Origin: Takakia lepidozioides
Lineage: Eukaryota > Plantae > Bryophyta
Assembly (NCBI GenBank): GCA_030704615.1
Contig: CM060732.1
Coordinates: 19,778,001-19,842,000 of the forward strand
Length of the DNA stretch: 64,000 bases
Reading direction: 5' to 3'
Made by a program: the position numbers and the translations under genes. Position 1 is the stretch's first letter, and each line of letters begins with the position of its first letter. The notes under the pieces are model-generated. The model was not told the DNA's origin. It ran no database searches and saw only the letters and a list, made by a program, of their open reading frames with translations. Below, piece by piece: positions 14,777 to 55,400 of this stretch.

Positions 14777-14802
14777 CTGCCATGCCATACCATCCAGGAA
14801 CA

Positions 14803-16828: not shown

Positions 16829-18343
16829 GTTCAACAAGCACCTCCATCGCATGAAATGACATGCCCAAACTCTAACGATATCAACATTACCAGGCAAGCA
16901 ATCTTGGAAGGTGCTCTGCTTCACAAATACCCTAAGTAATTGCAACAAGAGGTCCAGAATGCAAATACAGAGTCACATACAGAAAGTTACAGTGAGATAC
17001 CCCCTAATGCCGTCTGTCTTGCTTCTTCGGCCTGGTCAGTCAGTGTCTATCTCCTGTGTGTCCTGTATTTGCTATTGAGATGTACCACTAGAGTCAACCC
17101 ACAACACACCTGCATGCTTAACTGTGCGCCATGTTAGCTTTGTGTGGGCGCTTATTTTCATAGGAGGTTGGTCCGGATTTGATCACCGGCCAATCCTAGA
17201 GTATGCTGTCGGTGGTGAGGCTGGAGTGATGACCAGCAAGACCACCAGTGTTTCTTCTATGGTGAGGCCGGGTTGATGACCAGCAGACCATAGGAGTGCT
17301 TGCGGTGGATGCAGGTGCAGGTACAAGTCTACGTTAGAAACCTATTATTCCTGCTTGAACCAGTAGTTGCAACAGGTTCTTTACCCGGTTACCTTGTAGA
17401 AAGTGGGGATTAGAGACAGGTTGACAACCGGTTGGGTTGCGAGTTTTCATCACGGAGGTGCCACCAGCTGCTGAGGGGAGTGTCGGTACAAGCACCAGCG
17501 ATACTAGTGGGTACACAAGACAAGGTGTGCGGTTTAGGCCACTTTCACCTTCAGTGTCTTCTGAGGAAGGTTCAGACTCGGAGTCAGGAGGATTCTCGCC
17601 GCAGGTGCAAGTCATTTCCGTACCATTGTTGTGGGACACGATGGAGGAGATGTATGGAGCTACCAAGGGGCCACGTAGGTACTCTGGAGCTGTGGGCACC
17701 ATCGAGCTTGATGACTTTATACAAGAGTTTGACAATTGGTGTGATTTGCAGCAAATGCGCAATCCACAACTGTTTACGCCCTTTATGGCGTGGAAGGGGC
17801 TATTCCAGCACCTTGAGGGGCCGCCCATGGATGATTACCATGAATTTAGGCGGGGACATGCGGTGGAGATTGAGGAGTGGCGAGAGTATTGGTCACCTAA
17901 CTATGTCGCAATCACTAGAGGCACAAGGGCAGCGGTGACACCAGCAGCTACACAAACATCTCCAACTACAAGCACTTGTAGTGGAACAAGTAGTGCCGAC
18001 ACTTCTGCAGGTGGTACCAGTTCAAAAGGTGCTACTGCTCCTCCTGCCACAATTACAATACATGTGCCTAGATTCAACCCGGTGGTGGAGTTCTTCCAGG
18101 AGTTGCGGAGGAACTATCAAGGTGTCCGGACAGAGAAGCTGCAAAGTTTGCAAGACTTCCAGCGCAAATCCAGTGAGAGCTTGCGAGAGGCCTACACTCG
18201 TATGAGGCGCTTGATAAGTGTGACCCAAGGGGTTACTGAAGCTCAGGCAGTCTAGTTCTGGTATGGAATTTTGGACAAGGAGCTCAAGAGAAGGGTGCGG
18301 GATGCAACCCTGTTACAAGTGGCCCAACCCACATTAGCGGATG

Positions 18344-19074: not shown

Positions 19075-19076
19075 CT

Positions 19077-19088
19077 TGGTATCAGAGC
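19077..19088 (+). promoter_or_regulatory. Primer binding site complementary to tRNA-iMet
   Basis: TGGTATCAGAGC 2 nt after the LTR end. Confidence 0.92.
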
Positions 19089-19129
19089 TTAGAGTTCAGT
19101 ACGTGATCGTCCTTGGGATTGGCCTCATC

Positions 19130-23331: not shown

Positions 23332-23672
23332 ATGAGGATGTGTATGAATTGGAGCTGCCGGCAAACAGCAAGGTGCATCCAGTATTTCACGTCTCCCTTT
23401 TGAAGCCTTACTTCAAAGATGAAGCGCGTCCGAATCGGCATCAAGTGTTGCTTCCGCCACCTGTGCTGTTGGATCATGAAAATGAACCTGAGTACGAGGT
23501 GGAGGCAGTACTTAAGTCGAGGAGGTTCAAGAACCGAGAAACGGAGTATCTCGTCAAATGGAAGGGCTATCATCATGTGGAGGCATCTTGGGTGCGTGCC
23601 TCAGAAATGGGAAACGCATCCGAGGCGGTTGCAGTTTTCGAAGGGCGACCTCAAAAGCGGAAGAAGCGTTGA
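23328..23672 (+). CDS. Integrase C-terminus with class I chromodomain (frameshifted piece)
   Basis: [13 protein letters not shown] then EYEVEAVL...YLVKWKGY...SW with the aromatic cage residues intact. Confidence 0.92.
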
Positions 23673-24577
23673 TGGGGACATCAACCTTGGAGCGTGGGGG
23701 AGGAAATGCATGCTTAGCCCAGCTTAGCTAGCTCAGGAATCCGATTGCAAAAACTTGTATTGTACAAAATTTGCTTTAAATGAAATGGTTTTCAAATGTT
23801 GTGCTTCCTATTTTGTTTGGAATGGTGATACATGGTATGGTTGGCTAGTGTGTAGAATGCATGCTAGCTTACAAAAGTGGGAGAGGTAAATTGGGTTAAT
23901 CGTGTGTTTGCATAGTGCCGAAATCGGGTGACTCCCATCCAAGGGGCAAGGAAACTTGCGCCTTCTTTGGGAGTTCACGTGCTAGTGCGCACCTGGCGCG
24001 TGCGCGTACTATAACTGCGCTACCGAGGGGGTTGCCTTGTAGTGCGGGCTAACGCGGAAGCTACGTGCTTCCGTTCACGTACTATAATCATGTAACCTTG
24101 GGACGAAGTCGTAGTGCGGCTTCGACGTGTTCCCGTACCTCAGGCCAGCATTCCAAGACGGACCCAATTGTAGTGATTGGGGGGCACGGTTGGTTCAAGG
24201 TTATCTTCCTAGTCAAAGGGGGTTCCAGGTGAACCCTTGCGCAAAGTGATGCCAAAAGCGGCATCAGGAGCGATCGCAAGCAATGTTGTTGCAGTAAGGC
24301 GATTCGATCCTCGGGGAGGATCGTTCCTTGACCTTGAAGAAGGCCAAGAAGAGTGCACTGGGAGGAGCTTGAGAGGATCCACCCCTGGCCGGGACTTGGA
24401 GGAAGTCGGCCGAACTAGCTAGTGGAGAGTAGAGTCAAGTGTGGGGTTTGGTTCTTTGCCATGGGACGCCAAGGTACGGAAACAAACTCCTTGATGTGGG
24501 ACGCCACAACTTGGATGTTCGTTTCTACAAAATGGACAAGTCGATGAGGACATCGACTCCTTGTTGGTAGGGGTGTG

Positions 24578-25302
24578 TGTCGCGGCCCTTTGCCTTGAGG
24601 GCAGGGGGTTGGGACACATGAGGGGCTGCCCCTGTGGTGGGGGCAGCGGCAGCGATAGGTATGGGGGGCTGAAGCACCCTTGAGTGCCCAAGGCACTCAA
24701 GGAGGCGGAGGCGCTCACTAGGTGGAGCCCCGCACACCAGGTTGCGGTGGGGGTGGCTCCACAAGGGGTGGTGGTAGCTTAGCGGACTTAGTGGGGGTGG
24801 CATAGGACTCACCATGGGGGCGGAGACCTCGTGGTGGGAGTCGTGGGGAGTCTTGGGACTCATCACGGTCCATAGGGGCCGTGGTGAGTGGGCCAAGACT
24901 CACCGCGACTCATCACCGGGAGTCGAGGGTTTTCGTGGTGGTTCGCCATAAAATGGCATGGCTGGTTGCGAAACCCCCGCGGATAGCTACAGAAGTATAT
25001 ATAGGGAGTAGTAACCCCGAGAACGGTGCAAGCCCGTTGGTGACCAAAAACTAGTGAGTAAGCGAGCGAGCCGGAAAGCGACCAAAGAGTGGGGAGCTGT
25101 TCCGGACTGCCAACTACCAAAGGGAATTCCCGCTGGTTCTAAATCGGTGGAGGGTTCTTTGGGAGTTCAAAGGGGGACCGTTATGCCCCGGTGAGCAGCC
25201 GAAGCTCCAAGTTGGTCCGGCGGCCAGGTTGGGAGTTAGGCGCGCGCATCAAGCTAGCAACTATGACCTGAAGGGGAGCTTACCGAAGTGAGGTGCACGA
25301 CG
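24578..25302 (+). repeat. 3' LTR of the chromovirus (725 bp)
   Basis: Repeat of the 5' LTR with about ten transitions and three small indels; preceded by PPT-like GGTAGGGGTGTG. Confidence 0.95.
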
Positions 25303-25729
25303 GGATGTGTTTCTGCTGGTTGAGCGGATTGAGCTCAACATGGTGGAGGAGCGAGTTGTTACCATTGGATTTGGCAAGGACATGCCTGCACGAGGTGCAG
25401 CTGCCAGCCAACAGGTACAAGGGACTGCCCAACAGCGTGGTCAGGGGGGCAAGGTTGCCCAACCCAAGTTCCATGGAGCTTACAGGGGACCTCAGGTGTA
25501 GAGGCCCGTGGCATCTTTTGCAGGCCAACAGCAACCAGGGGTGATATGTTGGACATGTGGAGGACCCCATGTCAAGAGAGATTGCCCAGAGAGTGGCAGA
25601 AGGCCGGCACAAGCACAGCCTGCACAGTTGCAGTGTGGGCATTGTGGCAAGTATGGGCATGGAGATGCCCAGTGTCATGACTTGCACCCTGAGTTGCGCC
25701 CAGGCCAGTTCCAAGGAAACAATGGTGGC

Positions 25730-26831
25730 GGGGGCGAAACAAGTGGCAAACATGGACACGTACTTGCGACCTCTTGTTGATGAACTTAAAGAGCTATGGA
25801 GGGGGGTCCCGGCATTGGATGCTTCACTTGACCCTATGGCCGGACAATCTTTTCAGATGAGAGGCATCTTGCTTTAGACAATGCATGATTATCCAGGTAT
25901 ATTATGTTCCCCATGAACAACCCGCGTACATTCACTTGTCAATGCCGGATAATATCGATGAAAATTGGGATTGATTGAAGTAGCGGCGACAGTCTTGTGC
26001 ACCGTAGTGGGGTAGATGGCATTATGGGCCATGCACATGACAACTTTTTGTTTTTGCTAATGTGGCGGGATGTGTAGTACAAGACTAACTGTTTGCTCGG
26101 GGCTAAGCACCAAAGGGTACCATGTATGCTTGCATTGTGGCGATGATCTTGATGCACATAGCTCCCGCCATCTTCACAAGATGGTGTATCCCAACTACTG
26201 CAAATTTCTTCCTATGAGCCATCGATGGAGAAGAAGAGAGAAACACTTGTTTGATGGCAAAGAGGAAGTACGTCCCCCCCCCCTATGACACCGTCCGGGC
26301 AATTTTGGGAAGATGGATGGAAGAAGGCCCATGCGGGCACGGACGGTGAAGTGGACGTGCCCGACATGAAATGAATTTCAATCTTCTACGAGTTGTCATA
26401 TTGGGCGGTACATATTCCACAAAGACACCGTCAATATCCCTATGCATGCATGTGATATCGCACATTTGGTATGCGTTGCATTGTCACTTTCACGTAAAAA
26501 TTTTTGTGTAAGTCTTTGTGGGTGGGGATATATGTAGGACCTGAAGATTCGCCATCTTCTAGATCCCATGCATATTGAGAAGAATGTCTGCTCGTCCCTT
26601 TTTCGGGTTCTTCATGGCACGCCGGCAAAGAAGGGAGTGGCTGCAAAAGGAGATTCTCTCGGTGTTAGAAATGAGCTTGAGGAGCAGGGTCGCATGCGCT
26701 ATCTATGGGCCGAACAAAATGGTGTGGACCCAAAAGGTGTTGTACGGTGGAAGTATAGGCGCGCACCTTGGCAATGGACAAAGGAGGAATACAAGAAAGT
26801 GATAGCCACCATAAGTGTTGTCCGAACACCA
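25730..26831 (+). pseudogene. CACTA/En-Spm Tnp2-family transposase fragment with introns
   Basis: MDTYLRPLVDELKELW, MHDYPG, GLSTKGYHVCLHC, FYELSYWA|DLKIRHLLDPMHIEKNVC (intron 26408-26537). Confidence 0.88.
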
Positions 26832-27959: not shown

Positions 27960-28400
27960 TGTGCTTCACCCCTTCTCCCATCATTCATAGGTCTCCAAAG
28001 CCTGCATCCCGCGCCCCTACTGTGCATACCCTGCAAGCATCGCGTTCCATGACACCACATCTCGTTCAGCTATAGTGTTGAACTCTCCTTTCGCATCCTC
28101 AATGCTCCCACATTTGGCATACATGTCCACTAGAGTAGTGTGCAGGATGAGTTCTGGTACAATTGCAGATTTGATGATGTCACCATGGATCTCTTGGTCC
28201 TTTTCTAGGGTTGCCAGGCTCGCACACGCATTGCAAACGCACACAAACATTATATGGTCGGGCTTCACCCCTTCCCCCATCAGTTGCTCATAGGTCTCCA
28301 AAGCCTCCATCCCACGTCCCTGCTGTGCATACCCTGCAAGCACTCCACGATACCACATCTCGTTCAGCCATAGTGTTGATCACTCCCTTGCATGCACCCA
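27960..28400 (-). pseudogene. PLS-class PPR gene fragment
   Basis: ERDVVSW, GYAQQGRGMEAL...GVKPDHIMFVCVCNACA, LVDMYAKCGSIEDA; stops and frameshifts; similar to 14803-15145. Confidence 0.88.
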
Positions 28401-28429
28401 CATTTGTCATACAATATGTCCAGTACCAG

Positions 28430-28580
28430 GGGTGTCCAAAATGACATCTGGTAATCTGACAGGCATTCACAACTGTCCCACCACTGACTGGGGTCAGAAA
28501 AGTACTCATTCCACAGCTTTGTTGTGCTAAGCATCGTGCCACAACATACATCGCTGTCCACCACACAATCTAAGCACACA
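28430..28580 (-). repeat. Probable LTR remnant of the DNMT-gypsy family
   Basis: Shares GTGGACAGCGATGTA and flanking similarity with the LTR at 52234-52495; correct side and orientation. Confidence 0.5.
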
Positions 28581-28988
28581 ATCCTAGAAAGCTATACCAC
28601 AATGAGAAGAGATGAGAAATGAGAGAAGTAGAAGACAATGAAAGCTCTCAAAGCATGAAGCAATCACATGAAGAACAAGCCCTAGTCCTTCCAAGTGAAA
28701 TCCACTCTATCACATAAACTAAGTCAAGCCAAGGGCACCTTTGCAAAAGGAATCCACCCTACAAAGCCCTCAACACACTCCCTCTCAATACCTAGAGCTA
28801 TAGAGGTGAGAGAAGCTCATGGAGGCTCAACTACAAGAAGATGAGCCTCCTCAACACTCACAAGGGGAAAACCTATCTCCATGTCTCAAGTGAGGCTCGA
28901 CACCTCACTTGGCATGTGAGACCAAATGAAGTCCCAACACACAAAATATAAATATAAATATCTAAAGCAGACCCACACAACATGCACC

Positions 28989-30848
28989 TCAAACTTGCAG
29001 GTACCACTGCCAGGTTTGGGTCAACCCTTCCATCAAAGGAAGGTGACATGGCGCGCAATTACGCACATGGTCCTTCCAAATCATGCCATCCCGACCCTCC
29101 AAGATCAGGACTCCTGAGGGCAACACCTCTCGAACCCTCAAAATAGTACGTCCTGCAGTCACATCCAAGGTCGTAGGAGCAGTCTGCTGGAGATAAACAT
29201 AGTCACCCGGGTTGAATCTCCGATAGCCCCCACCACGTATGGTAGCATACCTCAACGTATCACGATGTTGTGCAATGGCAAGGTTCTCGAAAGCCATGGG
29301 CATGACTTTCTTGAACAACTCTGCACGCTGCTCACATGCACGTGCCCACACGTCCGGATCGTCAAGGTTAAGAACTGTAGCAGCTTCTCTGCGAATGGAT
29401 GTAGGCAAATCCGGCTCTCGGCCAAAGAGAAGAAAGTATGGTGAGAAGGAGGCAAGTGATGCTTGCTTGCTGAACCTGTAGCCCATGGCTAACCAGGGTA
29501 ACTGAAGGTCCCAATCTCGTAGGTGTCCATTCTGCAAGCCATACTTGCGCAAACCCCTCTTTACTGTCTGAACAACTCTCTCTGCCAAGCCATCGGCCTC
29601 ATGATGATCCCGAGAAGTGGTGCGGTGGTCTATCAAGGCCTTGTCACACAAAGCCTGAAACTCCCCCAAGAACTCTCTCCCTTGGTCCGTGAGTACCTTA
29701 GCTGGAGCACCGAATCGGCTAAGCACACAATCCAAGAATGCATACGCAGCTCCCTCACTAGCCTTATCAGGCAATGGAACCAATTCAATCCACTTGGAGA
29801 AGTGCTCTACCATCACCAACACGTACTTGTTGTGGCGCATGGTCAGTGGCAACGGCCCTGCGAAGTCAAGACTCCACCTGTAGCCCAATCCCATGATCGG
29901 AAGAGGGTGCAATTGTGGAGTAGGGGCGTTGAATGAAGCACGCACCCTGTCACACACCATGCACCTAGCCACAAATTGTTGCACCTCTGTGTGCATACCA
30001 CGCCACCAATACTGCCCCTGCAGTAGACTATGAGTGCGTCGCACCCCAAAATGCCCCAACTCCTCATGGGCATGCCGCACTAACCGTGTCCGCTGTGTTG
30101 GGTGAGGCACAATCCTCACTCTACCATCCTCCCACACTCGGAGCAGGTGTGTCCCCTCCCACTTGAACCTCTTGGCTCGTTGTAGGATCCGATCCCTCTC
30201 CTTGGCAGTCACAGTGGCTGCAGTGTCTCCAGTGCGGAGGTAGTCCAACACAACTGAATCCTCATGTATATCTTTGGCGCCACCTTGCTCATTGCTGGCC
30301 TCAGGGTCCTCAGACACTTGATCTACAGTCATCTTTGTTGCAGGTCCAACCTGGCCTTCCGCTGCCAAGATACACAGAAATGCAGATGCAAGCCATCCGG
30401 GCACCATCTCCTCGTCCGTCTCACCATGCCACCGAGCTCCAGTGTTATCCTGCTGGCTCGTGCATGGATTGCAACTCAACCCATCTGCATTGCGATTGAC
30501 CAAACCCGGTCGATGCACCACCTGAAAGTCATACTCTTGAAGGATGAGTGCCCACCGTACAAGCTTCCCCGTAAGCTTGTTTGACTCCATCAACCACTTG
30601 AGTGGTTGGTGATCCGTGACAAGGGTGAAGAGATTGCCGTATAGATAGCACCTGAAGTGTGCCACGGCCCACACTGCAGCTAAGCATTCTCCCTCATATG
30701 AGCTATACTTAGACTCTGCAACGTTGTTCGAGCGGCTAGCATAAGCCACTACAAACTCTCTTCCCTCATCATCCACCTGTATGAGCACCGCTCCAAGCCC
30801 TTGCATGCTCCAATCTGTATGCAACTGAAAAGGACGCCCCCTGATAGG
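28989..30848 (-). pseudogene. RNase H and integrase of the DNMT-gypsy
   Basis: HTDWS, YEGECLAAVWAV, TDHQPLKWL, AHEELGHFG...CMVC, DDE core. Confidence 0.93.
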
Positions 30849-31802
30849 TCATCTCAAGATGGGCGCCGAGGTCAACCTCGCCTTGAGCTCTTGAAAAGCT
30901 TGTTCTTGCTCATCTTCCCACTGCCACTCCTGGTCCACCTTGGTTAGCTTGGTTAGAGCCTTTGCAATGGCACTAAATCCCTTAACAAACCGTCTATAAT
31001 AGTTTGCTAACCCCATGAAAGCTCGAACTCGGCTCACATCCGTGGGGCGTGGAACCTGTGCAATGGACTCTACCTTATTTTGCTGTACCCCCAATCCTCC
31101 AGGATATATCATGTGACCCAGATACTCAATCTGGTTGTGGAAAAACTTGCACTTTCCCGGATGTAACTTCAATCCGTGCGCCCTCAAGCGCTCAAATACC
31201 CCCTGAAGGTGTCTCTCATGCTCTTCCACCGTAGCACTAATGATGATGATATCATCTATGTAGCACCGAGCAAACTCCACCCCTGCTAGAATCCTGTCTA
31301 TGACTCTCTGAAACTCTGCCGGAGCGTTCTTAAGCCCAAATGGTAAGAACCGCCACTGGTATAGGCAATCCTTCCCGTGCTCATTGATCCCCCAGAATGC
31401 CGTCTTTTGCTTATCCGCCTCCTTGATCGGCAACTGGTGATATCCGGATCGTAAATCCAACGTGCTAAAGACCTTGGCATGCCCAATGGCATCAAAGATC
31501 TCCTCTGGTGTTGGCATGGCATACCTATCGGACTTGGTCTGACGATTTACAGGCCGGTAATCACCGCACATGCGTCTCTCCATCCAATTGCCATAGACAT
31601 CCTTCTTGGTTGGCATCACTGTGGCTGAAGCATACTCTCCCCCAGATAGCTCCACCAAACCAGCCTCCCAAAGGTCCTGAGTTCTCATCTGAATCAAGGA
31701 CCTCTCCATGTCACTGTATCTATAGGGTCTCCAAAATATTGGCGTGTCAGTAGCCAATTCAATGCGAATCTCTTGACCCTTCAGTGCTCCTAAGTCCTTC
31801 AA
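30849..31802 (-). pseudogene. Reverse transcriptase of the DNMT-gypsy
   Basis: [41 protein letters not shown]. Confidence 0.95.
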
Positions 31803-32259
31803 ACTGAAGGCAAAGCAATTCTTGTAAGCCCTCAGGAACCACCGTATACGTCGTCTCTCTCCTCCGGTGACAATGGGTCCAATGTCAGGCTCCCAATTGT
31901 CCTCTGTAACTGCAACCTTAAGTCCAGTGGGCTTAGAGGTAGAGGATGCGTCCCGTGGTTGCTATGCCGCAACCTCTTGAGCAGTACTCCCTGCCTGCTC
32001 AGTCAATGACAAGGCCTCATCCTGCCCCATCATCTCATCCTTGAGGACCTCATCAACCCGAGAAGAATCCCCAACCTCATCCATCACAGCTGCCTTGGCT
32101 GCCAACTCCTTCTGAACCTCGAGCACCTCCCACGTGTGCCATGGATGCGGCCTGCACCTCGTGGTCCTCACCTGCTCGCCCCCACTCGCTGCCTGTACCG
32201 TCTCGGTATGCAGGGAGACCATGAAGGGAAGTGTACTCCGTACTCTGCGCTGCTCGGCC

Positions 32260-33215
32260 ATAGCCAAGCTGATAATCCAGGTCAAGCAATTGAGATCCAT
32301 TGCTTGCCCCAACACCTGATGACGTGATGCCTCAGAAAGAGATGGCACCGCCGTGGTACCAGTGGTAAAACCCATTGCCCGCTCGCGCTCGTCAGCATTG
32401 GGCTCCACTAATTGTTGCAACTGGCTATCCCACAAGATGCCAGGTCCACCATCCCGAAAAACATGGGATCCTGGGAAGCTGAGCAGTGTAGGTAATGATG
32501 CTCGTGGTTGACCCACCCTGTTGACCACTGCCAAAGGCGAACGGTCATCGTGTCTCATACGTTGAGACTGCCTCCCTGTGTCCAAAATGCTATCCACTGT
32601 GAGGTGTGCTGGCCGCTGCACCCCATCAAATGCATGCTTGAGCAGTGCGGGTGGCATCAAATTAGTCCACCATAGCCGTGGACGATGAGCCCGTGACCCC
32701 ACTGCAGCTGCATCCAGCAACACTGCTGACCCAAGCCACGACCGGACTTGATACACACTGGCCATCACCCTGGCCCGAGAATCACCCATCAGTGGCACAT
32801 TCTCCAAGATGAATGCTGGAGATACAGCTTGATGAAGCTACAAGTGACGCAAAACCCCGCACCATCTCCCAAAATAGACCCGTCCTTGAGTCTCGCAATC
32901 CATTGTCATGCCCGGCTGATGAATGCCCTTGGCAGGGCCAACCTGCCACTACCAGATCAATGGAGCCAACCCGCTCCAAATCCTGCGCCCCCAGCAACGA
33001 AATGTCTGCTGGCAAGGCTTGTTGGTATCCACGAACTGCAGACACTGGCAACAAATCAGGATACTGCTGTACCAACTGAGCAACATGGCGCAGTGAGACG
33101 CGTCGTGCAGTCTCATCCCTCTCCACATACAGGTAACGTCGAACTCGTACACCTGCCTGCAGTACTGCAGCCAATCCAGTGCTGATTCCGCCAAACAAGT
33201 CCAGAAGGCATATGC
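32260..33215 (-). pseudogene. C5-cytosine DNA methyltransferase domain inside pol
   Basis: Motif I LLDLFGG, II YVE, IV AGWPCQGHS, VI ILENV, VIII HRPRLWW, IX ERERAMGF, X VLGQAM, in canonical order; one frameshift (~32855) and one TAG. Confidence 0.93.
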
Positions 33216-34164
33216 CTTCATCCGGGCACTGCCACACAAGAGGTGTGGTGTCCAATGGCGACAACTGAGGTGGTCCTGGTGCAATCACCGCACTCTCATC
33301 TTCTCCTGACGGTACGAAGGCCTCTACCCAGGCTTGTTGTACCCGTCCATCAGCAGCCTGCTGCAAATTCTTGCTCGTACCCCATAATGGAGTGTGAGCA
33401 ACCATGGCAGGCAACTCCGCCATACCATGCATGTCATCCTGCTCTGCTGGAGGTGACACATCCTCTGCATGGGCATTGCCTTCCAGCAACTCTCCAGGCC
33501 AACTAACTGCAGCTGTAAAGGCGGCTAGTGTTGGCATCTTGCCCCGCTGGGCAGCCACAATACCCCCAATGAATGTCACAGGGAGCTGTGCACGACAACC
33601 ATCCCCTGACTGCCATCCAGGCCTGTAGGATGCTAACTCCTCCCAAAAGTCCAGGGTGAAGCCCATGGGATATAACACTGTCCCACCAACAAGGACATCG
33701 TAAGAGACCGCGTCTGTCACAATGGCCTTGACTCGCATCACTGAGCCATCTACAGGATGATCTGGTTGTAGTCCAATGGCCAACTCACGCCGTGTCATGC
33801 CCCGAGCTCTGATCCTCCCAGAGATGTGTGTTTCTGGAAATGACAAGGCTCCATATCCGCCTCCATGAGGCCCAAACCGTCCCTATGTTCATTTGTTCGT
33901 ATCAGGACTTTGTCCATCCCTTCCCGGTCTTTTCTCTTGGCACCCCATCCGAAAACAACCCAAGTACATCAGGCGGGAGCCGTGGGTGAAACGCCGCCCC
34001 CACGGTACCGGACGATGATGACGATGACAGTGATAGTGACAGTGACAACAACAATGAGCATGGAATTAACCAGGAGGATGTGCACGCCATGGAGGATCTC
34101 TTAATGCATCATGTGAAGTTGGGAATCCTTCTGCATCATGACTTTCACATCATACAGATCTTAG

Positions 34165-34938
34165 GTGTTACCGGCTCCCAGGCGGGATGGTCCACCTCCT
34201 GCTCCTGAGGGAGGAGATATGGGAGGCATGGGATTCATGTGCGGAGCAGCACTACCACTAGTGCGGGTGGAGTCTGCTGCAGCCGTGACTCGAGGAGCAG
34301 CACGAGTTCCTGAGCCACGAAGTGCAGAGGTGGAATTGGATCCACAGCGTGGGGAGGCAAGCCGTCAGGCGAGGCTTCCTCAGTCATTCACATTGGCGGA
34401 GACAGTGTCGACGCCATCCATGGCACCTAGTTCTCGCCCGACTGTTACCGAGGCGGAGGTTACTATGCCATTGGGGAGAGCTACACGTGCAGCACTGACA
34501 CCTGCTACCAAGGCTAGTGCAACCGGTGTAATATTGGGGGCAGCCACCTCTGTGTGTCAAGCCCCACTGTTCTCGGCAACCATGATTGCGACGCCGGGGG
34601 TAAGACCAGCTGCAGTGTTCAGACTAGCAGCAACACTCTGCGAGAGTGGGGAGATCACTTCATCTTCTGCGGAGTTACTGGAAGGTGTAGTGGCAGAGGG
34701 ATCCTCGGATTTGAGGGTCAAGACTGCCACGGCTGCGCCATGGCAAGCTGCAGCTGCCAGGTTGACGGAGTTGCCAGCTAGGCCAGCCTTTGAGCGCGCC
34801 ATGGTGACACCTGGAGTTGTCTTGTTAGACAACCAGGGAGGCATTTTCACTTTGAGTGGACCGGCAGGCAAGAAGCACCGGCCATTGCGGGTCTTGTTGG
34901 ACTTAGGAGCTCAGCCACTGATGTTGGGCAGAGCTGCT
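34165..34938 (+). pseudogene. Gag-pol linker and N-terminal half of the aspartic protease, probably the same gypsy family
   Basis: AAAVTRG linker motif; ends RVLLDLGAQPLMLG (degenerate D-S/T-G-A), then breaks abruptly into AT-rich DNA. Confidence 0.65.
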
Positions 34939-35912
34939 AATGTGTCATTGCAACCATTTCATTATAAGCGAAATGCAAACAACAACCTTCAATGTGTGTG
35001 TGCATCAAATATGTCATTCAATAATTATATGTATGTGCGCAACGTACACGCATGCAAAATTTCAAACCCAAACAAAATCATTTGCCCCCCCAATGACGCA
35101 TTCACCCTATCAACCAATTTTGGTTTATTAATGTGAAAAAAAATCCTCTCATGCCATTGCACCCAACAAACGGATGTGGCTCAAGCTTCATTTTTTCCTA
35201 CATGTGCTTAAATATGTGTGCAACACCTGTACAAAGATCCAGCAGGGTTAAAAATTATTATTTAAATATATATATATATATATATGCCTCCCCAACGACG
35301 CACTCACCCTTGCACCAATTTTGAATTAAATCGAATTTAAATTAATTTAAAATAAATATTTGCATTTAGAAAATATATGATTGCGGTTTTGAGGGGCGTA
35401 CTGATTTTATTTTTAGCTCTTTTTTGTTCTGTGACATCAAGCTTTGCACCACTACATCCATGCAAAAAATGGGACCAAAAAAAAATGGAAAAAAAATAAG
35501 TGTGTTTCTAGGGTCACTTTTGCAGAGCTCTCTATGAAGAGTGCATGAAGTTGAAGATAACTCAACTTTAGAGTGCAAATGAGAGAACAAAATCTGGTTA
35601 TGGGTCCAAATGACTTTTGTTTACTCCCAAATTTTTCACGCACATTGCATATGCTATCATTAAGCATATGGCTTGAAAATGGAATAAAAAAAAAATCATC
35701 TGCAGACGAAACACAATTTTCCGTCTCTATGATACGTAGCTGCGTTCAACACTAGAATGACCCATTGAATCAACTTGGTTCAAGCTCATATTTGGTCCAC
35801 ATGTGCATAAGTATGTTTAGATCACATATGCAAAGTTGCAACCCACACGAACAACAATTTTTTTTACATCAATCGATTAATCGGATGTATACAAAGTACA
35901 TCATGAGAATAT

Positions 35913-37573
35913 CTACAATGCCCCTCTACGCGATCCCTGTCTCAAAGGACCCCTTTTTCTATTATACACATCACACTCACGCTGTAATCGGAGGTCCCAA
36001 TCATCCTGGGAGAACTCGTATGATGCAAATAGTTCGCTGCCAGCCCTAATAGTCCTACTAGCACATGCCATCACAAACATGTGCATCCCCTCACAGTATA
36101 CTGACGTATGACCACAATAGCTCTTATGCCCATCGCTTCGCTCGTCCCATACTACATTGGTTCTCCTAGGATGACCAAAAGAACTATTGACCAGCCCAGC
36201 AACATTGCCGAAGATGTCGGGGTCACCATCACAAAATCTGATCTCAATGGCAGTCAACCCCCGTCTACGTACATCCTGTCCGTTGACACACAAAATGTAG
36301 GGTAGGATGTATGGGGCTTCGAGGCGTAATGTACGGAACTCCGCGGAGGTGTAGTATGGACCGTAGTAGGGAAACAAGTCCACCATGTTGTTTCTCCGAG
36401 GAGGAACCACAATATCATTGACCGTGAATAAACCCCGACCCATAGCAGGGTCTGTAGCGACTCTCACAACATACCGTCTCCCCCAATACTCGAACTCCAC
36501 ATTTTCTCGGATGGGGGTGGGAGGGTCGAGATGATTCCCCCAACAACGAGGCTGGACGGTCCTCAATAACATAGTCCTATGCGCTTCCCATCGGGAGCAA
36601 AGATCCGGCTCAGGCCGCCCAAGCCGAAGGGGAGGAAACCTAGGGCGAAGCCGACCCCTCCTAGGGGTTCGGGGGGCACATGCACGTGGAGGTGGAGGTG
36701 GAGGTGGAGGTGGTACTGCTGGCGGAGGAGATGAAAGTGGAGGTGGTTGAGGATGTAATGTCGGAGGTGCAGCCGGGGGTACAACGTCCGGATCAGGTAC
36801 AACCGGAGGTGGATCAGGCAAAGAAACAGACGGGGGGGGGGGGGGGGGGCTGCTCGTCGCCGGCCATAACACCTATGACACCTACGATACCCCTCGACCC
36901 TACGCATCTCATCTACGTGCTGCTGGGGGAACCAACTGATTACATCGGGCACATGCTCTGGCACAAATTCTGCAAGTAGACCGACGCAAAATGCCTCCTG
37001 TGCAATGTGATTGCGAGCTTGGGCATCAAGTCGTGGCTGCAATGTGCGTAGTGAACGACGCATCAATACTTATGTCGTAATTTTGATTCATGTATGCTTA
37101 CCAATCATACTATATTATTAGATAAACCTAAATGTACCTTAAATGAATGTTAATGAGAGGGTGGGAAAAACATTCACCTTTGCCGCATCCGCAATCTTGT
37201 TCTTCTTGTAATGTTTTTCGATAACATGCGGTCGCCGCCTCGGTGGTCTGGTGCCGCCCGGCGGTATCCGTTCCCAACACTTAGTGCACCAACACTCAAT
37301 CCTGTCGGGGGGGTCAAAGGTGGACGTGGTTGGACGGGGTGGCCCGCGAGGGGGCAACCCGCGGCGCGCCCGACTCGATCCCGGAGTGTCAACATCCTCC
37401 GCATCACCTGAAATTTGGCCCCGGTCCCTTCTACGATTGTGCCCGGCAGCCTATATTGGATCAGGTGCAATGGGTGCCTCCTCGCCACGAAAAATGGTCG
37501 CTCTAGGGCCACAATCGATATATGGTACTACCTCCCCATCCTCGAGGGAGACGGGTCGATGTTTCCTCACCAT
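35913..37573 (-). pseudogene. Two-exon gene: Cys/His cluster, Pro-rich linker and SET domain
   Basis: ATG 37573; in-frame TAG 37451-37453; CWCTKC...H; phase-0 GT-AG intron 37037-37177; frameshift in the G-run ~36832-36849; SET motifs GRGLF, YYG, GNVAGLVNSS, ASRTIRAGSELFASY. Confidence 0.8.
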
Positions 37574-38215: not shown

Positions 38216-40072
38216 GCCGCACCTTTTTTTTTTCCCCTAAGTGCTTCAAGCATCTTTTTCCCCTCCCGTTTTCGTTTGTTCTTTGGGAGAGAGGTAGTTC
38301 AGAGAGTGGGGTTTAAGGTGGAGGAGAAACGCACCTGCTGCTGAGCCCGAGGTGGTCGCAAGGCCCCAAGGAGTTTGCCCCAACGCCGCTCCAACGCCCA
38401 AGGTAAGCACCGCCTCTTCCCTCACTTTTTGTCTTTCTTTCTTGCCCTAAGCACGGTCTGATGTCTCTCTCCCCTTTGTGGTAGGAACGTCGCGCAGAGG
38501 TGCGACCTAACGAGCTGAAGAGAGAGAGAGAGCCGTGGTGAGCGGGGGAGAGACGCCCTGTAGCGGCGGGGACCCGCGTCGCTAGCAGCCGCGACAGCAC
38601 CGCAGCAACTCGCCGCACCAGCTCGCTTCAAGCACCAGCAGCAACAGAGATACGTCAGGGAAATTGCACTCTCCCTTTCCTCTCTGCTTCTGTTTACTGT
38701 TCAAAGGTAGTCTTCCTGCCTAGACTTTAAATTTAGGTCTGGTGCCAAGAGTGGGATAGACCCTTGAGCGCATCCATGATGTCCTCCCCCATGTCACAGA
38801 CTGGAAACAGGTTCAGGGAAGTTTTCTTCCTAACTTCATTTTCATCGGACAATTTTTCTGGTAACAGACATGGCTTTGGACACTACACTCTCTAAGTCAG
38901 GTTTATCCAACAAGGTCAAGACTTGCGGGTCCAGATTCAGATCCTTGAGAATCTCTTTTACTCTCTTCTCTCAGGGCTCACCCTGTTTGACAGGGCGGTC
39001 ATGTTTCCAAGATATAGAGTCGATTAACTTAGGATATCTGGTGTTGGACATATGTTGCAGCTGAACCCACCATCTAACCTTGAATTTAGGGTGTCGGGAG
39101 CTTAAAAGAGAGCAGCACAGAAGAAAGGGACAGAGAGGGAGAGGGACAGAGGGACAGAGAGGGACAGAGAGAGGGAGTGAGAGGGAGACATCAGGGGGCA
39201 ACAAAGAAAAGAAAAGAAGGTGGGGGGGGGGGGGGGGTGTGACTGAGCAGCAGCTGCTGCTCAGTCACTCCCCCCCCCCCACATTCTCTGTTTTTCTTTG
39301 TTGCCCCCTCTCTTGGGGAAACAAAAGGGACAGATCCTACCTCTGTCAGGGGCTGACGTTGGTAGTAAGACTTACCTTCACATATAGAATTAATCCGGGT
39401 TTTCCATATATCCTCTACAAATCCCTTCACACAAGCATCAATCTGCTGTGTGTGAGTTGCCCAAAAACTAGGCCTCAGAAGGGTTGGGCTTTTGGCTCAG
39501 CCTCGACTTTTTCAAAGTTAGTAAACAGAGGTACATGCACAATTCCCTTGATAGATTTGAAGAGAGCGTCTCTTTGGTGAGAGAACCACGGACAGTGTAT
39601 CAGAAAATGAATAATGTCTTCAGGTTGCCCACAGACATGGTTGGACACTACAGCCTCTAAGTCAGATTTATCCAGCAGGGTGAAGACTTGCGGTTCCAGG
39701 TCCAAGTCCTTGAGAATCTCTTCTACTGTCTTCTACCAGGACTTAGCCTGTTTGACAGGTCGGTGGGCGGTCCTGTTTCCAAGATATAGAGTCGATTAAC
39801 TTAAGATATCTGGTGTTGGACATATTTTGCAGCTGAACCCACCATCTGACCTTGAATTTATCTCGTCGGGAGCTTAAAAGAGAGCAGCTGCTCAGACACT
39901 CCCCCCCCCCCCCCCACATTCTCTATTTTTCTTTGTTGCCCCCTCTCTTGGGGAAACAAAAGGGACAGATCCTACCTCTGTCAGAGGCTGACGTTGGTAG
40001 TAAGACTTACCTTCACATATAGAATTAATCCGGGTTTTCCAGATATCCTCTACAAATCCCTTCACACAAGCA

Positions 40073-41545
40073 GGGGAGTGCTTGCGCGTGAGCCTGGCCA
40101 CGTGAGCCTGTGAGCCCAGCCAGGCTCACGCCACGTCAGCAAGGTTTCCCACGTGCAAGACCTAATTCCGCGGATGCCACCTATTTCCGCGGAACTGTAG
40201 GCGACTACCACGCCCCAGATTTGCCAACATTAATTTCCGAGAAGTCTCATTCCTCATCCAAATCTTAGTCGAATGAGAAATCACGGGTGGTTTGTGGATA
40301 ATTTTTGTCCACGGGCACAGGATATTTCAGAGAGTACAATGTCATGTTGCGTAATGAACACGAAGGAGAATGAGTTTGTTCTAACGAAGTTCCGTCCCCC
40401 CAATTCACATCCACTTTTCATTGATAGATGTTCTCCAGACAAACACCAGGAAATCCCTAAAGCGTCTTTGCGGTTTATGAAAAAACATGGTGCAGAACAG
40501 GTTGGCAAGATTTGCAATGCAAGACACGAAACAAAGAACAACAGGGCCAGCAACCATACAAAATGCAAAAAACAGTCCTAAAAAAAGAATGCTTTCATTT
40601 CTCAAATCAAGGTTGCGTCAACGCAAGGTTGATTTGCATCACCCTCACAAAAAATAAAAAATAAAAAATAAATAAAAATAAAAATGATGCTTTCATTTCT
40701 CAAATCAAGGTTGCGTCAATGCAAGGTTGATTTGCATCACTCCCCAAGGAGGAAGAAAAAAACAAATATTCAAAAAATGATGCTTTCATTCTCAAATCAA
40801 GGTTGCGTCGACGCAAGGTTGATTTGCATCACTCCCCAGGGAGGAAAAAAATAAAAATAAAAAAAATAAAAAAATCAAAAAATGATGTTTTCATTTCTCA
40901 AATCAAGGTTGCGTCAACACAAGGTTGATTTGTATCACCCCCAGGGAGAAATAAAAAATAAAAAATAAAATGAAGTCGTATGTCTGTCGATGTATGTCAC
41001 GTCATCAATCGTGTTGTGCGTGCCACTACCATTTGTTGCATTCGTTCCTCAAACTCATTTGTTCATTTGCGAACACATCAAGTCACATTCAAATGAACAT
41101 TCTCGGAAACCAACCTCGTATTAATACAAGGTTGATTTTGAAAACTTCAAATCAACCTCGTGTTACAAGGTTGATATCAGTTCTAGGAAATCAACCTCGT
41201 GTTAATACAAGGTTCATTTCAAGTTCTCTGAAATCAACCTCGTGTTAACACAAGGTTGATTTCAGTTCTAGGAAATCAATCTCGTGATAATACAAGGTTC
41301 ATTTCAAGTTCTCTGAAATCAACCTCGTGTTAACACAAGGTTGATCTCTGCGGACGCCCTAAACCCTTAATCCATCTCACCTTCAGATGGTGAAATCCCA
41401 CGGTTATATCTTTGTGGTGACCTGGCACAACCTTGGGTGGGCTCACGCCAACGCCACGTCAGCGCTGTGAGCGTAAGCTCACGCCACATCACCATTGTAT
41501 GAGCGTACGCTCACACGCCAGGCTCACGCGGTAGCATCGTTGAAG
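40073..41545. mobile_element. Non-autonomous TIR element inserted in a LINE-derived repeat
   Basis: Inverted ends share GCGTGAGCCTGGC; host repeat breaks at ...CACACAAGCA and resumes at TCAATCTG; internal palindromic tandem repeats. Confidence 0.7.
40590..41345. repeat. Two arrays of palindromic repeats (AATCAAGGTTGCGTCAACGCAAGGTTGATT x4; AATCAACCTCGTGTTAACACAAGGTTGATT x~6)
   Basis: Directly visible repeated hairpin units. Confidence 0.85.
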
Positions 41546-49523: not shown

Positions 49524-51846
49524 GTACCATGCCAGACAGATCATTCGGAGGGCAATGGAAAAGGGAGCCATACCCAAACCACCTTATGGAATTACACAGG
49601 TTGGCAAATCCTGAATCATGTCACCTTCCATTTGTCGCATGTGCATTAATGAGATGGATTCGATGCAACGTATGTGTGTAATTCACTAATTGTTGGGGGG
49701 GGGGGGGGGTGCATAGGTATCGTGGGATGCACTCATTTAGGCTTGGATGGCAGTCAGGGGAAGGCCGGCGTGTGCAGCTCCCTATGACGTTCATAGGAGG
49801 AGTTCCGGTTGCCCAGCAAGGCAAGATGCCGACACTGATAGCATTCACAGCTGCAGTGAGTTGGTCTGGAGAGTTTCTTGAGGGCAACGCTCATTCAGAG
49901 GATGTGTCACCTCCGGGAGAGCAGGTTGACATGTATGGTATGGCGGATTTGCTTGTCATGGTTGCTCACACTCCATTGTGGGGCTCGAGCAAGGATTTGC
50001 AGCGGGTTGCTGATCGATGGGTGCAACAAGCCTGGGTAGAGGCTTTTGTATCGTCAGGAGAGGAGGACAGTGTGGGGATTGCACCAGGACCACCTCAGTT
50101 GTCACCATTGGACACCACACCGATCGTGTGGCAGTGTCCAGATAAAGGCATTTGCTTTCTGAACTTGTTTAGTGGGATCAGCACTGGATTGCTACAGACA
50201 GGTGTACGGGTACAGCGTTAGTTGTATGTGGAGAGGGATGAGACTGCACGACACATCTCACTCCGTCATATTGCTCAGTTAGTGCAACAATACCCTGAGT
50301 TGTTGCCGGTGTCTGCAATTTGTGGATATCAGCAGGCCTTGCCAGCAGACATTTTGTTGCTGGGGGCACAAGATTTGGAGCGGGTTGGCTCCATTGATTT
50401 GGTAGTGGTAGGTTGGCCCTGCCAAGGGCATTCATCAGCCGGGCATGGCAATGGATTACGAGACTCGAGGTCGGGTCTGTTTTGGGAGATGGTGCGGGTT
50501 TTGCGCCACTTACAGCTTCATCAAGCTGTATATCCAGCATATATTGGAGAATGTGCCACTATTGAGCGATTCTCGGGCCAGGGTGATGGCCAGTGTGCAT
50601 CAAGTCCGGCTGTGGCTTGGGTCAGCAGTGTTGCTCGATGCAACTGCAGTGGGGTCACGAGCTCATCGTCCACGGTTATGGTGGACTAACTTGATGCCAC
50701 CCGCACTGCTCAAGCGTGCATTTGATGGGGTGCAGCGGCCAGCACACCTCACAGTGGATAGCATTTTGGACACAGGGAGACAATCTTAGCATGTGAGACA
50801 CAATGACTGTTTGCCTTTGGCAGTGGTCAATAAGGTGGGTCAACCACGAGCAACACTACCTACACTGCTCAGCTTCCCAGGATCGCATGCTTTCCGGGAT
50901 AGTGGACCTGGCCTCCTGTGGGATGCTCAGTTGCAGCAGTTAGTGGAGCCTAATGCCGACGAGCGAGAGCGGGCTATGGGTTTTTCCACTGGGACCATGG
51001 CGGTGCCTTCTCTTTATGAGGCATCACGTCGTCAAGGGTTGGGGCAAGCGATGGATTTCAATTGCTTGACCTGGATTAGCAGCTTGGCTATGGCTGAGCA
51101 ACGTAGAGTGCAGAGTGCACTTCCCTTGACGGTCTCTCTGCCTATCGAGACGGTACAGGCAGTGAGTGGGGGCGAGCCGGTGAGGACCACATGGTGCAGA
51201 TATCCATGGCACAAGTCTGCTGGACTTAAGATTGCAGTTACGGAGGACAATTGGGAGCCTGACATTGGACCCATTGTCATCGGAGGAGAGATACAACGTA
51301 TATGGCAGTTCTTGAGGATTTACAGGAATTTCTTTGTCTCTCATGCTACGGTGGAGGAGCATGAGAGACATGTTCAGGTTGTGCATCGACCGGGTTTGGT
51401 CAATAGGGATGCGGATGGATTGAGTCGCAATCCATGCACGAGCCAGCAAGATGACACTGGAGCTCGGTGGCATGGTGAGACGGACGATGAGATGGTGCCG
51501 GGATGGCATGCATCTGCCTTTTTGTGTATCTTGGCATCAGGAGGTCAGGTTGGACCTACAACAGGATGATTGTAGACGGAGTGTCTGAGGACCCTGAGGC
51601 TAGTGATGAGCCAGGTGGTGCCAGAGATATACATGAGGATTCAGTTGTGTTGGACTATCTCCGCACTGGAGACACGACAGCTAGTGTGACTGCCAAGGAG
51701 AGGGATCGGATCCTGCAACGAGCCAAGAGGTTCAAGTGGGAGGGGATACACCTGCTTCGAGTGTGAGAGGATGGTTGGGTGAGGATCGTGCCTCACCCAA
51801 CACAGCGTGCATGGTTAGTGCGGCATGCCCATGAGGAGTTGGGGCA

Positions 51847-51964
51847 TGCTCGTAGTACCGCCACTATGCTGGTGTGTGATCGATGCTCAAGAGGTTGGCA
51901 CATGGGATGCTTGACACCACCTCTTGAGAGGGTTCATGATGGAGATTGGTTATGTCCACATTGA
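51847..51964 (+). pseudogene. PHD finger at the integrase C-terminus
   Basis: MLVCDRCSRGWHMGCLTPPLERVHDGDWLCPH*; the missing first CxxC is in copy 1 (RCMLCGSA). Confidence 0.88.
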
Positions 51965-52239
51965 TTGAGATAGTGGCAGTGGATATGATTAGTGGCAGCT
52001 AACAAGACATGGGAGGCCAAACTCATAGGAGTCAATACCCGAGATCTTAGGCTCAAGTTCACAGGTTGCAAGACGGTGACTAACGATGGGGCAACTCTTG
52101 TACCCGGCCTCTTGATCTATCGAGTTTGAGTGTAGTAGGGACAGTGATGGAGGACTTAATGAGGCTATGGCCACTATCACATCTTATGGCTACCTGGACT
52201 TAGAGGGACCTAAGCGCCAGCTAGGGGGGCGATTGTGAT

Positions 52240-52425
52240 GGACTAGTGGCAGCCTAGTGATGGACTAGTGGCTGCACTAGTGGTGGCTAGTGGCAGCCTA
52301 GTGGTTGGACTAGTGGCTGCACTAGTGGTGGCTAGTGGCAGCCTAGTGGTGCACTAGTGGTTGCACTAGTGGTGGCTAGTGGCAGCCTAGTGGTGCACTA
52401 GTGGTAGACTAGTGACAGACTAGTG
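52240..52425 (+). repeat. CTAGTGG-based minisatellite at the start of the LTR
   Basis: About 16 CTAGTG units spaced 11-13 bp apart. Confidence 0.85.
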
Positions 52426-55400
52426 TTTGGTGTGCACATGTGTTGTGTGGTTGTGGACAGCGATGTAGTTGTGTAGCAATATGTATGCGCACGACATATG
52501 CTATCTAAACCAAGTAAATGTTGGGATGAAGGGTAAATAGCGATCATCGGGGTATAGATAAGTTTTAATATATTGATTATAATATAACATGCATCCAATT
52601 ATAATTATAATAATTTGGAATATTCTTTAATTTCATTAGAATAGGGTTTTATTGGTAAGATCTGAATAACATATCTTAGTCAATTGAGCTATATCCTGAT
52701 TTTATCTTTATCCTCAGGGTAAATTTTGGCAATGTTGTGACGTAGGTATTTATATATACCCAAACAATATCTCAGATAGTATTTTAACGGGCCGGAGGGT
52801 AACTTAAAATTAAAGAAATCTATTAACCCGCCTCACACCTGGATTCCAGTTCAAGATGCCAACTTCCCCAAATGCGGAGGGTAAGTTAAAACCCATTTAT
52901 CCACCCAACATTGGTCAAACCGCTGTTGAATGGGTTTTTATATTTTAGATATCCCAACAACAAGCTGCATGTTGGAAGATTCCAGTTGAGTTGGAAATCC
53001 TCTGGTCTAGATCTCACCACCTAGTTAGAAGAGTCAAGCAGGTTTGGTTTTCAACTAGGGTACAGGTCCCATTGCCCGCGCAACTAAGCCAAGAGTATAG
53101 ACACACGATAAAGACACCCGGCCTGCGCCAATCCAGTCCTGCCGCAAAGGGTGGGGCCCAAATTAAACCCGAGCGGTGCAATAATGCAAGATAATTTGTA
53201 TTTTGTATCTCCAAGGTTTGGAGCCGCTCAAATTTGCATTTGCCCCCCCACATTTCGTCTACATAACGGGCTCCAAACCTGGCCCGTCGGTATGTTTGGA
53301 TCCCTTTTTGACTACACGTATCTGCAACCCACATTACTCCGGGCATTTTGTCATGGCAGTGACGAAGGACCTACTGCCAACGCAGCGAGGCGGATCCCCA
53401 AACTTGCCAGCAAGGTCAAGATAGTGAGGCACCATGCTTGCACGGCAACATGGTTCTTTTCTACTCCTCCGCTATCTTGGAAATTGGCCCCGCCAAATGG
53501 GCCGGTACAATGCATTTGGCGGGGCATTTTGGCTGGCACTGCTTAATTTAGCCAATATATCATAATTTTTTTAAGTTTAAAATACTTAAATTTATATGAT
53601 AAGTATGTTCCTGGTGAGATGTATTGCAAAACTATAATCAGGAAAGGTGAAAACATACATATAGATATATGTGTGTGTGCGTGCGCGCGTGAAAAGGGTT
53701 ATTTGTCTTATGTTTATTGCACATTTGACTCAATCATTGCAGATTGACACTTCTCCAAAAATGCATGCATCCATACATTAACCCCTAAAGGACAATCGGG
53801 AAATTACTTGCCACGCTCTAATTCCCATGGATGATATTGGATGAAAGTGAACCTTGAAGATGAATTGTACATGTCAGAGAGGAGCACATGTGGGAATTTA
53901 CAGCGCCAAAAAATCATAAAAGCTCTGCTCCCTAGAATTTTGCAAAGTGCCAAGGTTTCATGAAATCCAGTATTAGAGCACCATTGACCTGCCTACGTGG
54001 CAGTCAAATGGGCAATGTTCAAGAGAACATCTAGGGCTGAAAATTTATCATAATGCCAAATATTTTGGACAAGGCACCATGAAATGTTACTGTGCACTTA
54101 CTTACCAGTCACCTCATGGAAAGAAGCCAAAACAAGATTTTTTACCCCCCCAGATTTCACATACAAAGCAACCCCCCCATATTTTGGGCATTTTGGTCTG
54201 AGATTCTGGGAGATGACCTGTTGGTTGCCCCTTATCCAGATTTAGGAGGCCATTTCTTCAAGAAAAAATGTAAAATCACCAAATTTGCATGGTCAAAGCA
54301 ATTTTTCCTCTCTTTTTTTGTTCATGGTTTCAACTTGGCCAATTTTCTTTTGTTATAATATACTAAATGGAACGGTCAAAAGTGCTACAATTTTCTGAGG
54401 ACCTTCATGTAGTAGGTAGGGATGAAATGGAATGGTTCATCCAGCTGGATGTAAGGGGGGCGGGAAGTTAAAGCTATGAAATGGAGGGTATGGCCCACTT
54501 TTTGGGAAAACTCCCAAAAGTTAGCTCCTCCTTTAGGGGTTAATTGCAGGAGCAACATATCATTGTTGATCAAAAGCTGATCAGGCGTGACATGGTATCA
54601 TGGTATATTTTCTCTTAGTCTTTTACGAAGAAGCAAATGTTCTATGTATCCACGGCTCTCTTCTCTGCCATGGCAGCCTTTTTAGCATCTTTCTCTAGCT
54701 ACTCTCTCGCTTTCTGATCATTAGCTTTATCCTCTTATTCTATTCTTTTTTGTGTAAATTCAGCAATGTAACTTGGATCAGTAACCAACCTGCTCCTTCC
54801 AATGGTTTTGGGTGGTTGGATGCTAGGGAGAGATAAAATCGCAGACAAAGATCGATCTACAAACTCCATTCCATGTATCTCTGTGCTACTGGAGAGCCCT
54901 GTCTACAAACCAGCCCCTTTTTTTAAGGAAAAAAATAGCCAAAAAGCTACAAATAATATGGCGTTGACGTAGTTATATAAAAACATGGGATGAAAATACT
55001 TTGTTGGAGCCTTCATTTTTGTATCTCACTTTTGTTGCTATAGCCAGATCTATATAGGTACACCGCTAGATATCGCCAATGCAACCATCGTGTCTGTTCG
55101 TGTAGCCAAAGTGGTTAGAGCATTGAAGTGAGGTAGTCGCTCCCAAGATCGCTTCCTAGGCGTCGCCAGCTTAGCGCAGTCTTTCATCTAAGCTGTGTCA
55201 CCCAAATACAATTTGCATGAATGGATTCTCGCCAGGTGTGTCAAGGCTTTGATATGCAAGTACTCGTGTTTACATTGGCACTTATTTGCTTCAATTCCCT
55301 CTTTAAATTCAATCAATTTAAGGTACAAGGAGCGCCGTTTTGTAGAAGAGTGGAAGCACTGGCAACAAATGAGCTAACGACTGCTGTAACTGGAGTGGTT

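Follow-up and report, generated by a model that had tools for sequence, protein, structure and literature searches.

Introduction

How does a retrotransposon that carries its own DNA methyltransferase (DNMT) produce the enzyme, and in what amounts? The question is raised by a 64,000-nucleotide stretch of the Takakia lepidozioides genome (contig CM060732.1), referred to here as the window. One copy of such an element (copy 1) encodes on the minus strand at 33878-28966 the C-terminal half of a retropepsin, a full run of C5-methyltransferase motifs, reverse transcriptase (RT), RNase H and a DDE integrase, and an internally deleted copy (copy 2) lies further along the window. A sequence-only reading had described an LTR (long terminal repeat) retrotransposon with the DNMT inside Pol, in one open frame. 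Both parts of this description have to be given up: an in-frame TAG at 31964-31962, conserved throughout the family, divides DNMT from RT, and no LTR pair flanks copy 1, the relatives having split direct repeats. Judged from its sequence, the DNMT sits at the end of a Gag-protease open reading frame (ORF1), before a conserved stop that is probably read through at low frequency into a second frame (ORF2).

Identity and conservation of the methyltransferase domain

The six C5-methyltransferase motifs reported between protease and RT are all present, in order, on the minus strand, between the protease C-half and RT. The domain lies at 32250..33216 (minus strand), and its motifs follow one another in unrearranged order with the catalytic Cys. 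Hand-counted from the translation, motif I lies at about 33201, the catalytic Cys at 32934-32932, motif VI at 32804-32796, and motifs VIII, IX and X at about 32684, 32390 and 32312, respectively. PF00145 recognizes the domain, as had been anticipated, with 35.1 bits (E 1.3e-8, cut-off 22) on the ORF at 33882-32785, which holds motifs I-IV, and with 39 bits in copy 2 near 50.2-50.7 kb; the ORFs of the C-terminal half alone gave no Pfam match. The domain was also found in other family members: a search with the C-half retrieved 66 longer relatives among 4778 candidates, with up to 74% identity.

The class of the domain is taken from two related proteins. For P0007, the best 16 PDB sequence matches are human DNMT3A (E 6e-12), then DNMT3B/C and DRM2, and the predicted structure of P0071 (pLDDT 91.5) matches DNMT3A at E 4e-20. 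By these sequence and model comparisons the domain is a DNMT3-like C5 cytosine methyltransferase. Across 18 diverse members there is little or no variation in the S-adenosylmethionine (SAM)-binding motif, the catalytic Cys, the motif VI Glu or the motif VIII Arg. The domain is under purifying selection: comparison of the two window copies gives ratios of nonsynonymous to synonymous substitution (dN/dS) of 0.16 and 0.29 in the DNMT, and comparisons of families with unsaturated dS give 0.07-0.24.

A conserved stop between the two reading frames

Past motif X, the frame of copy 1 runs for 116 codons to TAG CAA CCA (31964-31956, minus strand) and then continues in frame into RT. This nine-base site has the CAR-YYA context and is a predicted read-through signal. 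No variant at 5% or more was found at 31956-31966 in any of the four runs mapped on 31870-32070 (X1, X3, X5 and a 5-kb contig of organism B). The organism B contig has 24 other differences in that interval and an intact stop, and changes private to copy 1, at 31905 and 31947, appear in the same variant table as nearly fixed differences; taken alone, 11 invariant bases in a row would be unremarkable in this table. The TAG is not private to copy 1.

Copy 2, which is 87% identical to copy 1 over 1493 nt, had been reported to carry lesions at different sites, leaving the consensus open. Its DNMT is indeed broken at sites other than those in copy 1, while the open consensus fails on the family-wide TAG. 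Copy 2 has nothing corresponding to window 31928-32131 and thus lacks the DNMT-RT junction, along with most of RT and integrase; it therefore cannot open the TAG.

The junction was surveyed in copy 1 and in the best 80 of 286 confirmed metagenome loci, giving 81 sequences. The RT start is present in 62 of the 81, and in 61 of these 62 an in-frame stop lies no more than 45 codons ahead of it. The stop is followed by CARYY in 53 of the 61, against a background of 2/289 for decay stops and 203/27,115 (0.75%) for stop triplets. When the junctions are clustered at 75% identity, stop and CARYY occur together in six of ten clusters. The second codon after the stop varies (CCA, CCC, CTA, TTA or TCA, encoding Pro, Leu or Ser) and retains YY, which points to a signal at the nucleotide level.

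The exact CAR-YYA context is found in the window copy and in locus L062. There, a 1369-aa ORF1 (protease, DNMT) and a 1047-aa ORF2 (RT, RNase H, integrase, PHD finger) are separated by a single TAG CAG TTA, the only stop in an otherwise open element. In three bryophyte genera, many family proteins stop roughly 100 residues past motif X. As described in the text of PMC2194720, CAR-YYA alone directs read-through in tobacco mosaic virus (TMV) and other plant viruses. If read-through holds, a stop placed after the DNMT means that methylase output would match that of Gag and far exceed that of RT.

Element ends and classification

Complete relatives are about 9.2 kb long and consist of A1 (340 nt), a long leader, ORF1, the stop, ORF2, B1 (115 nt), 2 nt, A2 and B2. 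The arrangement A1...B1-NN-A2-B2 is complete in L056, L058 and L067, and B-A-B is also present in L004 and L019. The relatives start with TG and end with CA, with short inverted termini, and have 4-bp target duplications that are exact at three distinct insertions (L056/L058, L067 and L018) and carry one mismatch at L054. The B1-NN-A2 joint reproduces the 3' end of the element fused to its 5' end. Eight loci (L018, L010, L024, L025, L035, L037, L041 and L051) end at the first B repeat, without A2-B2; L018 retains its 4-bp duplication despite this loss, as recombination between B1 and B2 would leave it.

The domain order protease-RT-RNase H-DDE integrase is that of Ty3/gypsy elements. Classification as a canonical LTR retrotransposon was rejected: the TG...CA ends and target duplications agree with that class, but split repeats take the place of two complete LTRs, and no TGG-type tRNA primer site was seen by eye after A1 in L003, L058 and L067. 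Repeat searches of the window found no LTR pair flanking copy 1. A DIRS/Ngaro element was ruled out by the presence of a DDE integrase and a protease and by the absence of a tyrosine recombinase in Pfam searches. Split-repeat ends combined with an integrase imply a regeneration of ends unlike two-LTR replication, and annotation by LTR finders would miss such elements.

Relatives and distribution

Named close relatives include Calypogeia fissa, Marchantia polymorpha and Sphagnum, with more Sphagnum and liverwort names in a further search. A profile search reaches distant chlorophyte sequences from Chlamydomonas eustigma and Cymbomonas tetramitiformis, and 281 proteins were found at E up to 1e-30 in the 50% library. 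Most of the 24 long relatives scanned are RT-RNase H-DNMT-integrase-PHD polyproteins. No Klebsormidium nitens, Chara, fern, lycophyte or seed-plant name stands among the matches listed, which is not evidence of absence, and no relative was found among viral contigs. In the distant proteins P0058-P0251 the DNMT lies mostly between RNase H and integrase; P0146 adds a G-patch domain, and P0250 has RNase H families with no RT match listed.

An RT tree was built with FastTree, using one outgroup and no named reference lineages and excluding L061 and proteins with less than 75% RT cover; its root is unsupported (0.23). The window sequence groups with the 12 included loci and two Marchantia models in a single clade (support 0.985), separate from six one-frame polyproteins with the DNMT before RT and 52 with the DNMT after RNase H.

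The sequence-only reading had held that such a domain is not a standard part of land-plant gypsy elements, and this agrees with the papers found. A retrotransposon-borne DNMT is known from a charophyte; the open-access literature yielded no description of such elements in land plants, nor of a read-through stop. What is new here is the occurrence in land plants and the predicted control by read-through. Two later papers (PMC12344493; bioRxiv 10.64898/2026.05.21.726589) speak in their text of "streptophytes", citing the 2018 work, and their trees or supplements may include land-plant sequences.

Within the genome of the window, the family appears very abundant and may therefore have affected host methylation. 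It has many divergent copies, as judged from summed contig depth (68,614 pieces in X1), a depth that is not a copy number.

Proposed mechanism and its significance

From established retroelement biology, most ribosomes would be expected to stop after the DNMT and release a Gag-protease-DNMT protein, and a minority would read through the stop and add RT, RNase H, integrase and the PHD finger. The DNMT would be packaged with Gag in the particle, where the protease would separate the domains and free it. Present at Gag-like numbers, the methylase could methylate new complementary DNA (cDNA) before or at integration. The PHD finger may guide insertion via chromatin, and the internal B-NN-A junction may serve to regenerate both ends. 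For the whole chain, from leaky stop through Gag-level DNMT, its release and cDNA methylation to PHD-guided insertion, our judgement tilts in favour; read-through taken by itself we regard as clearly more probable than the chain.

A wider reading is put forward tentatively, at somewhat less than even confidence. It supposes a clade of split-repeat, integrase-using retrotransposons with DNMT3 that spans the green lineage and predates land plants. The land-plant branch would have gained a TMV-type leaky stop, making the methylase a particle component at structural levels, so that new copies would arrive self-methylated. Dozens of "hypothetical" genes of Marchantia and Sphagnum would then be such elements.

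With these relatives, the retrotransposon-borne DNMT3 is no longer an algal curiosity but extends to land plants, among them the model liverwort Marchantia, in which its role is genetically testable. A stop of the leaky type predicts methylase in Gag-like amounts, a sign that dose matters.

Alternative explanations

Several observations weigh against the proposed reading. The 61 junctions are not independent, as 48 loci belong to one cluster, and strict CARYYA follows the stop in only 9 of the 61. Four of the ten clusters lack stop and CARYY. The exceptions include a second stop at +1 in L057, a deleted junction in L042, frameshifts in L064/L065 and L068, and no stop within 45 codons in L071; L068 and L071 may use another joint. 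The DNMT lies between RNase H and integrase in 52 of the 60 polyproteins in the RT tree, and in the distant relatives P0074, P0230 and P0047 the DNMT and RT share one open frame. Distant relatives therefore keep the DNMT without the stop, which is not needed for retention of the domain. Three decayed copies within the largest cluster give dN/dS values of 0.58-2.2, which fits decay following insertion. The window itself shows B termini only, and the full split-repeat structure is seen in relatives. Two results from other systems belong here as well: the in-frame gag-pol stop of Tca2 gave no detectable read-through in a yeast reporter, as given in the text of PMC2194720, and the closest tested enzyme, KnitGypsy-Dnmt3 of K. 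nitens, produced no methylation in yeast, a result that its authors call inconclusive in the text of PMC5890265.

The stop could be real and conserved and ORF2 still be made by re-initiation, splicing or an internal promoter, which we consider unlikely. In the largest cluster the stop is followed by CAACCC and then, in most members, by an ATG at +7, which would allow re-initiation; neither the window nor the clusters of L026, L061/L062, L066 and L070 have an ATG at +7. Automatic gene models of Marchantia and Sphagnum (P0002, P0003, P0013 and P0042) span the junction by predicted introns, but the bases ahead of the stop are not rich in U, an observation that speaks against a splice acceptor. 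Tca2 illustrates that an in-frame gag-pol stop need not leak in a reporter. Against all of these routes, the reading frame continues unchanged through the stop, and the context at +1 to +5 is conserved at the nucleotide level.

Read-through might be right and the DNMT act instead in the nucleus, on chromosomal DNA of its own copies or their neighbours, in a self-limiting or chromatin-shaping role. This, too, is improbable in our estimate. The position in ORF1 would yield abundant enzyme regardless of packaging, and self-limitation is raised as an option in the Discussion of PMC5890265. Fusion to Gag and protease, however, favours packaging on established retroelement biology, and the placement of the DNMT between RNase H and integrase in most of the distant relatives ties the domain to the cDNA complex.

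There is little to recommend a third possibility, in which the domain lacks DNA methyltransferase activity and is retained to bind RNA or cDNA. The inactivity of the K. nitens domain in yeast would fit it, but human DNMT3B failed in the same assay, and the conservation of SAM motif, catalytic Cys, motif VI Glu and motif VIII Arg across the 18 diverse members speaks for catalysis. That Pol is one open polyprotein and the TAG an ordinary C-to-T decay lesion, as other copy 1 stops of that kind, the one-frame relatives and the description of the K. nitens DNMT within a Pol ORF might suggest, is scarcely credible for a stop that is invariant in 4/4 runs, recurs in 6/10 clusters and is the sole stop in L062, in a family whose bryophyte proteins end shortly past motif X.

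Organization of the window copies and neighbouring sequence

In copy 1, ORF2 comprises RT (31574-31107) and RNase H (30836-30531) within 30531..31961, and the integrase within 28990..30101, with an H2C2 zinc finger at 30101-29937 and a core at 29882-29610, all on the minus strand and identified by Pfam. The PHD finger is missing. The protease C-half and the protease-DNMT linker lie at 33217..33878 (minus strand), with a frameshift near 33805. The extent previously given for the element, 28966..33846, holds for the stretch from this C-half to integrase and leaves out the protease active-site half. That half, with the Gag-protease linker, lies at 34165..34939 on the plus strand, an orientation opposite to that of the other parts of copy 1. 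In a tblastn search with the Marchantia relative P0005, gene model Mp4g09160, residues 436-654 match 34264-34950, and the remainder of copy 1 is matched from 33810 downward on the minus strand. Contigs from 4/4 sequencing runs (9, 8, 1 and 1 contigs in X1, X3, X5 and X10, respectively) join 33878 to 34939 on opposite strands, so that other genomic copies have a continuous protease and copy 1 is rearranged. Frameshifts near 33805, 32855 and 29035 and stops at 32840-32838 and 30851-30849 damage copy 1 further; the frameshift near 32855 and the stop at 32840-32838 break the DNMT domain, and the stop at 30851-30849 falls in the RT/RNase H part.

A likely remnant of the 3' terminal repeats lies at 28520..28966 (minus strand), with a B-like terminus at 28520. 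It is suggested by a weak match to the relatives' B repeat (E 0.11), a 32-nt match to the end of copy 2 and repetitive contig depth. This 3' end adjoins pentatricopeptide repeat (PPR) gene sequence; PPR fragments occur at 27960-28519 (minus strand; PF13041 and PF01535 for 28017-28376) and at about 14536-15143.

Gag sequence of the same family is found on the plus strand. An N-terminal part at 17641..18343 has 65% identity to residues 1-228 of P0005 (Retrotrans_gag, E 0.0037), and a C-terminal part with a zinc-knuckle-like region at 25308..25753 has 52% identity to residues 225-354 (tblastn match 25308-25700) and no Pfam match. To judge from the sequence, the Gag piece at 17.6 kb may or may not be part of the copy 1 insertion; repeat searches of the window found no A repeat upstream of it. 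The two Gag parts are split by a young canonical gypsy LTR element at 18344-25302 (plus strand), whose LTRs are 97.7% identical over 733 nt and which has a 5-bp target duplication, a primer site downstream of the 5' LTR, gag and pol frames that are almost open, and what is presumably a chromodomain-like tail. A decayed transposase at 25761-26800 (plus strand), which we take from its motifs to be CACTA/En-Spm-like, truncates the Gag piece. The ratio of observed to expected CpG is 0.51 in copy 1, 0.55 in the whole window and 0.87 in the young nested element, a comparison that does not separate self-methylation from ordinary host methylation.

Copy 2 (49727..52496, plus strand) consists of DNMT, scraps of RT, RNase H and integrase, a PHD finger at about 51857-51961 (37.3 bits, Pfam) and a B-type 3' terminus, where the B repeat matches at 52439-52496 (E 8e-7). 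A short tandem repeat occupies 52235-52414 in its 3' terminal region, right after a G-run like that before B1 in relatives. Elsewhere in the window, a 319-aa ORF at 35913-36872 (minus strand) has a proline-rich start and, by eye, a SET-domain-like C-terminal motif, with no Pfam match at E 0.01. At 38600-45200, a non-LTR-retrotransposon-like tail recurs in a cluster of direct and inverted repeats (ORFs 41524-41949 and 44774-45172).

Comparison with known systems

The plant Ty3/gypsy lineages of REXdb share the order GAG-PROT-RT-RH-INT, and 4-bp duplications occur among them; the words methyltransferase, PHD, Marchantia and Sphagnum appear nowhere in the main text of that work (Neumann et al., 2019; PMC6317226). 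The EpiLTRs of Cymbomonas and Euglena are likewise gypsy-like and combine a cytosine methyltransferase with a chromatin reader. Their DNMTs, however, group as sister to DNMT4 and are accompanied by DAM and a chromodomain, and the text deems them distinct from streptophyte Gypsy-DNMT3 (bioRxiv 10.64898/2026.05.21.726589). SymbioDIRS-Dnmt3 of Symbiodinium is also a retroelement-borne Dnmt3, and its enzyme methylates CG de novo in yeast, as described in the text of PMC5890265. It belongs to a tyrosine-recombinase element, whereas the family described here has a DDE integrase and 4-bp target duplications.

KnitGypsy-Dnmt3 of K. nitens, as its published text describes it, shares the gypsy domain set, an intronless Dnmt3-related DNMT under purifying selection, and DIRS-like repeats, with the ORFs between two A repeats and the 3' A between two B repeats (de Mendoza et al., 2018; PMC5890265). 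Compared by description rather than by sequence, that element is known from one charophyte, with few copies, whereas the present family is abundant and has liverwort and Sphagnum relatives. Its DNMT lies inside the Pol ORF; in the Takakia element the DNMT ends ORF1 before a conserved stop, and the RT frame would be reached only by read-through. An in-frame stop between two ORFs is shared with TMV (CAR-YYA), murine leukaemia virus (MuLV) gag-pol, SIRE1 pol-env and Tca2 gag-pol, as set out in the text of PMC2194720, and the six-base context in the Takakia element is of the TMV type. In contrast to those systems, the stop here follows both the protease and the methyltransferase, placing the two at predicted Gag stoichiometry.

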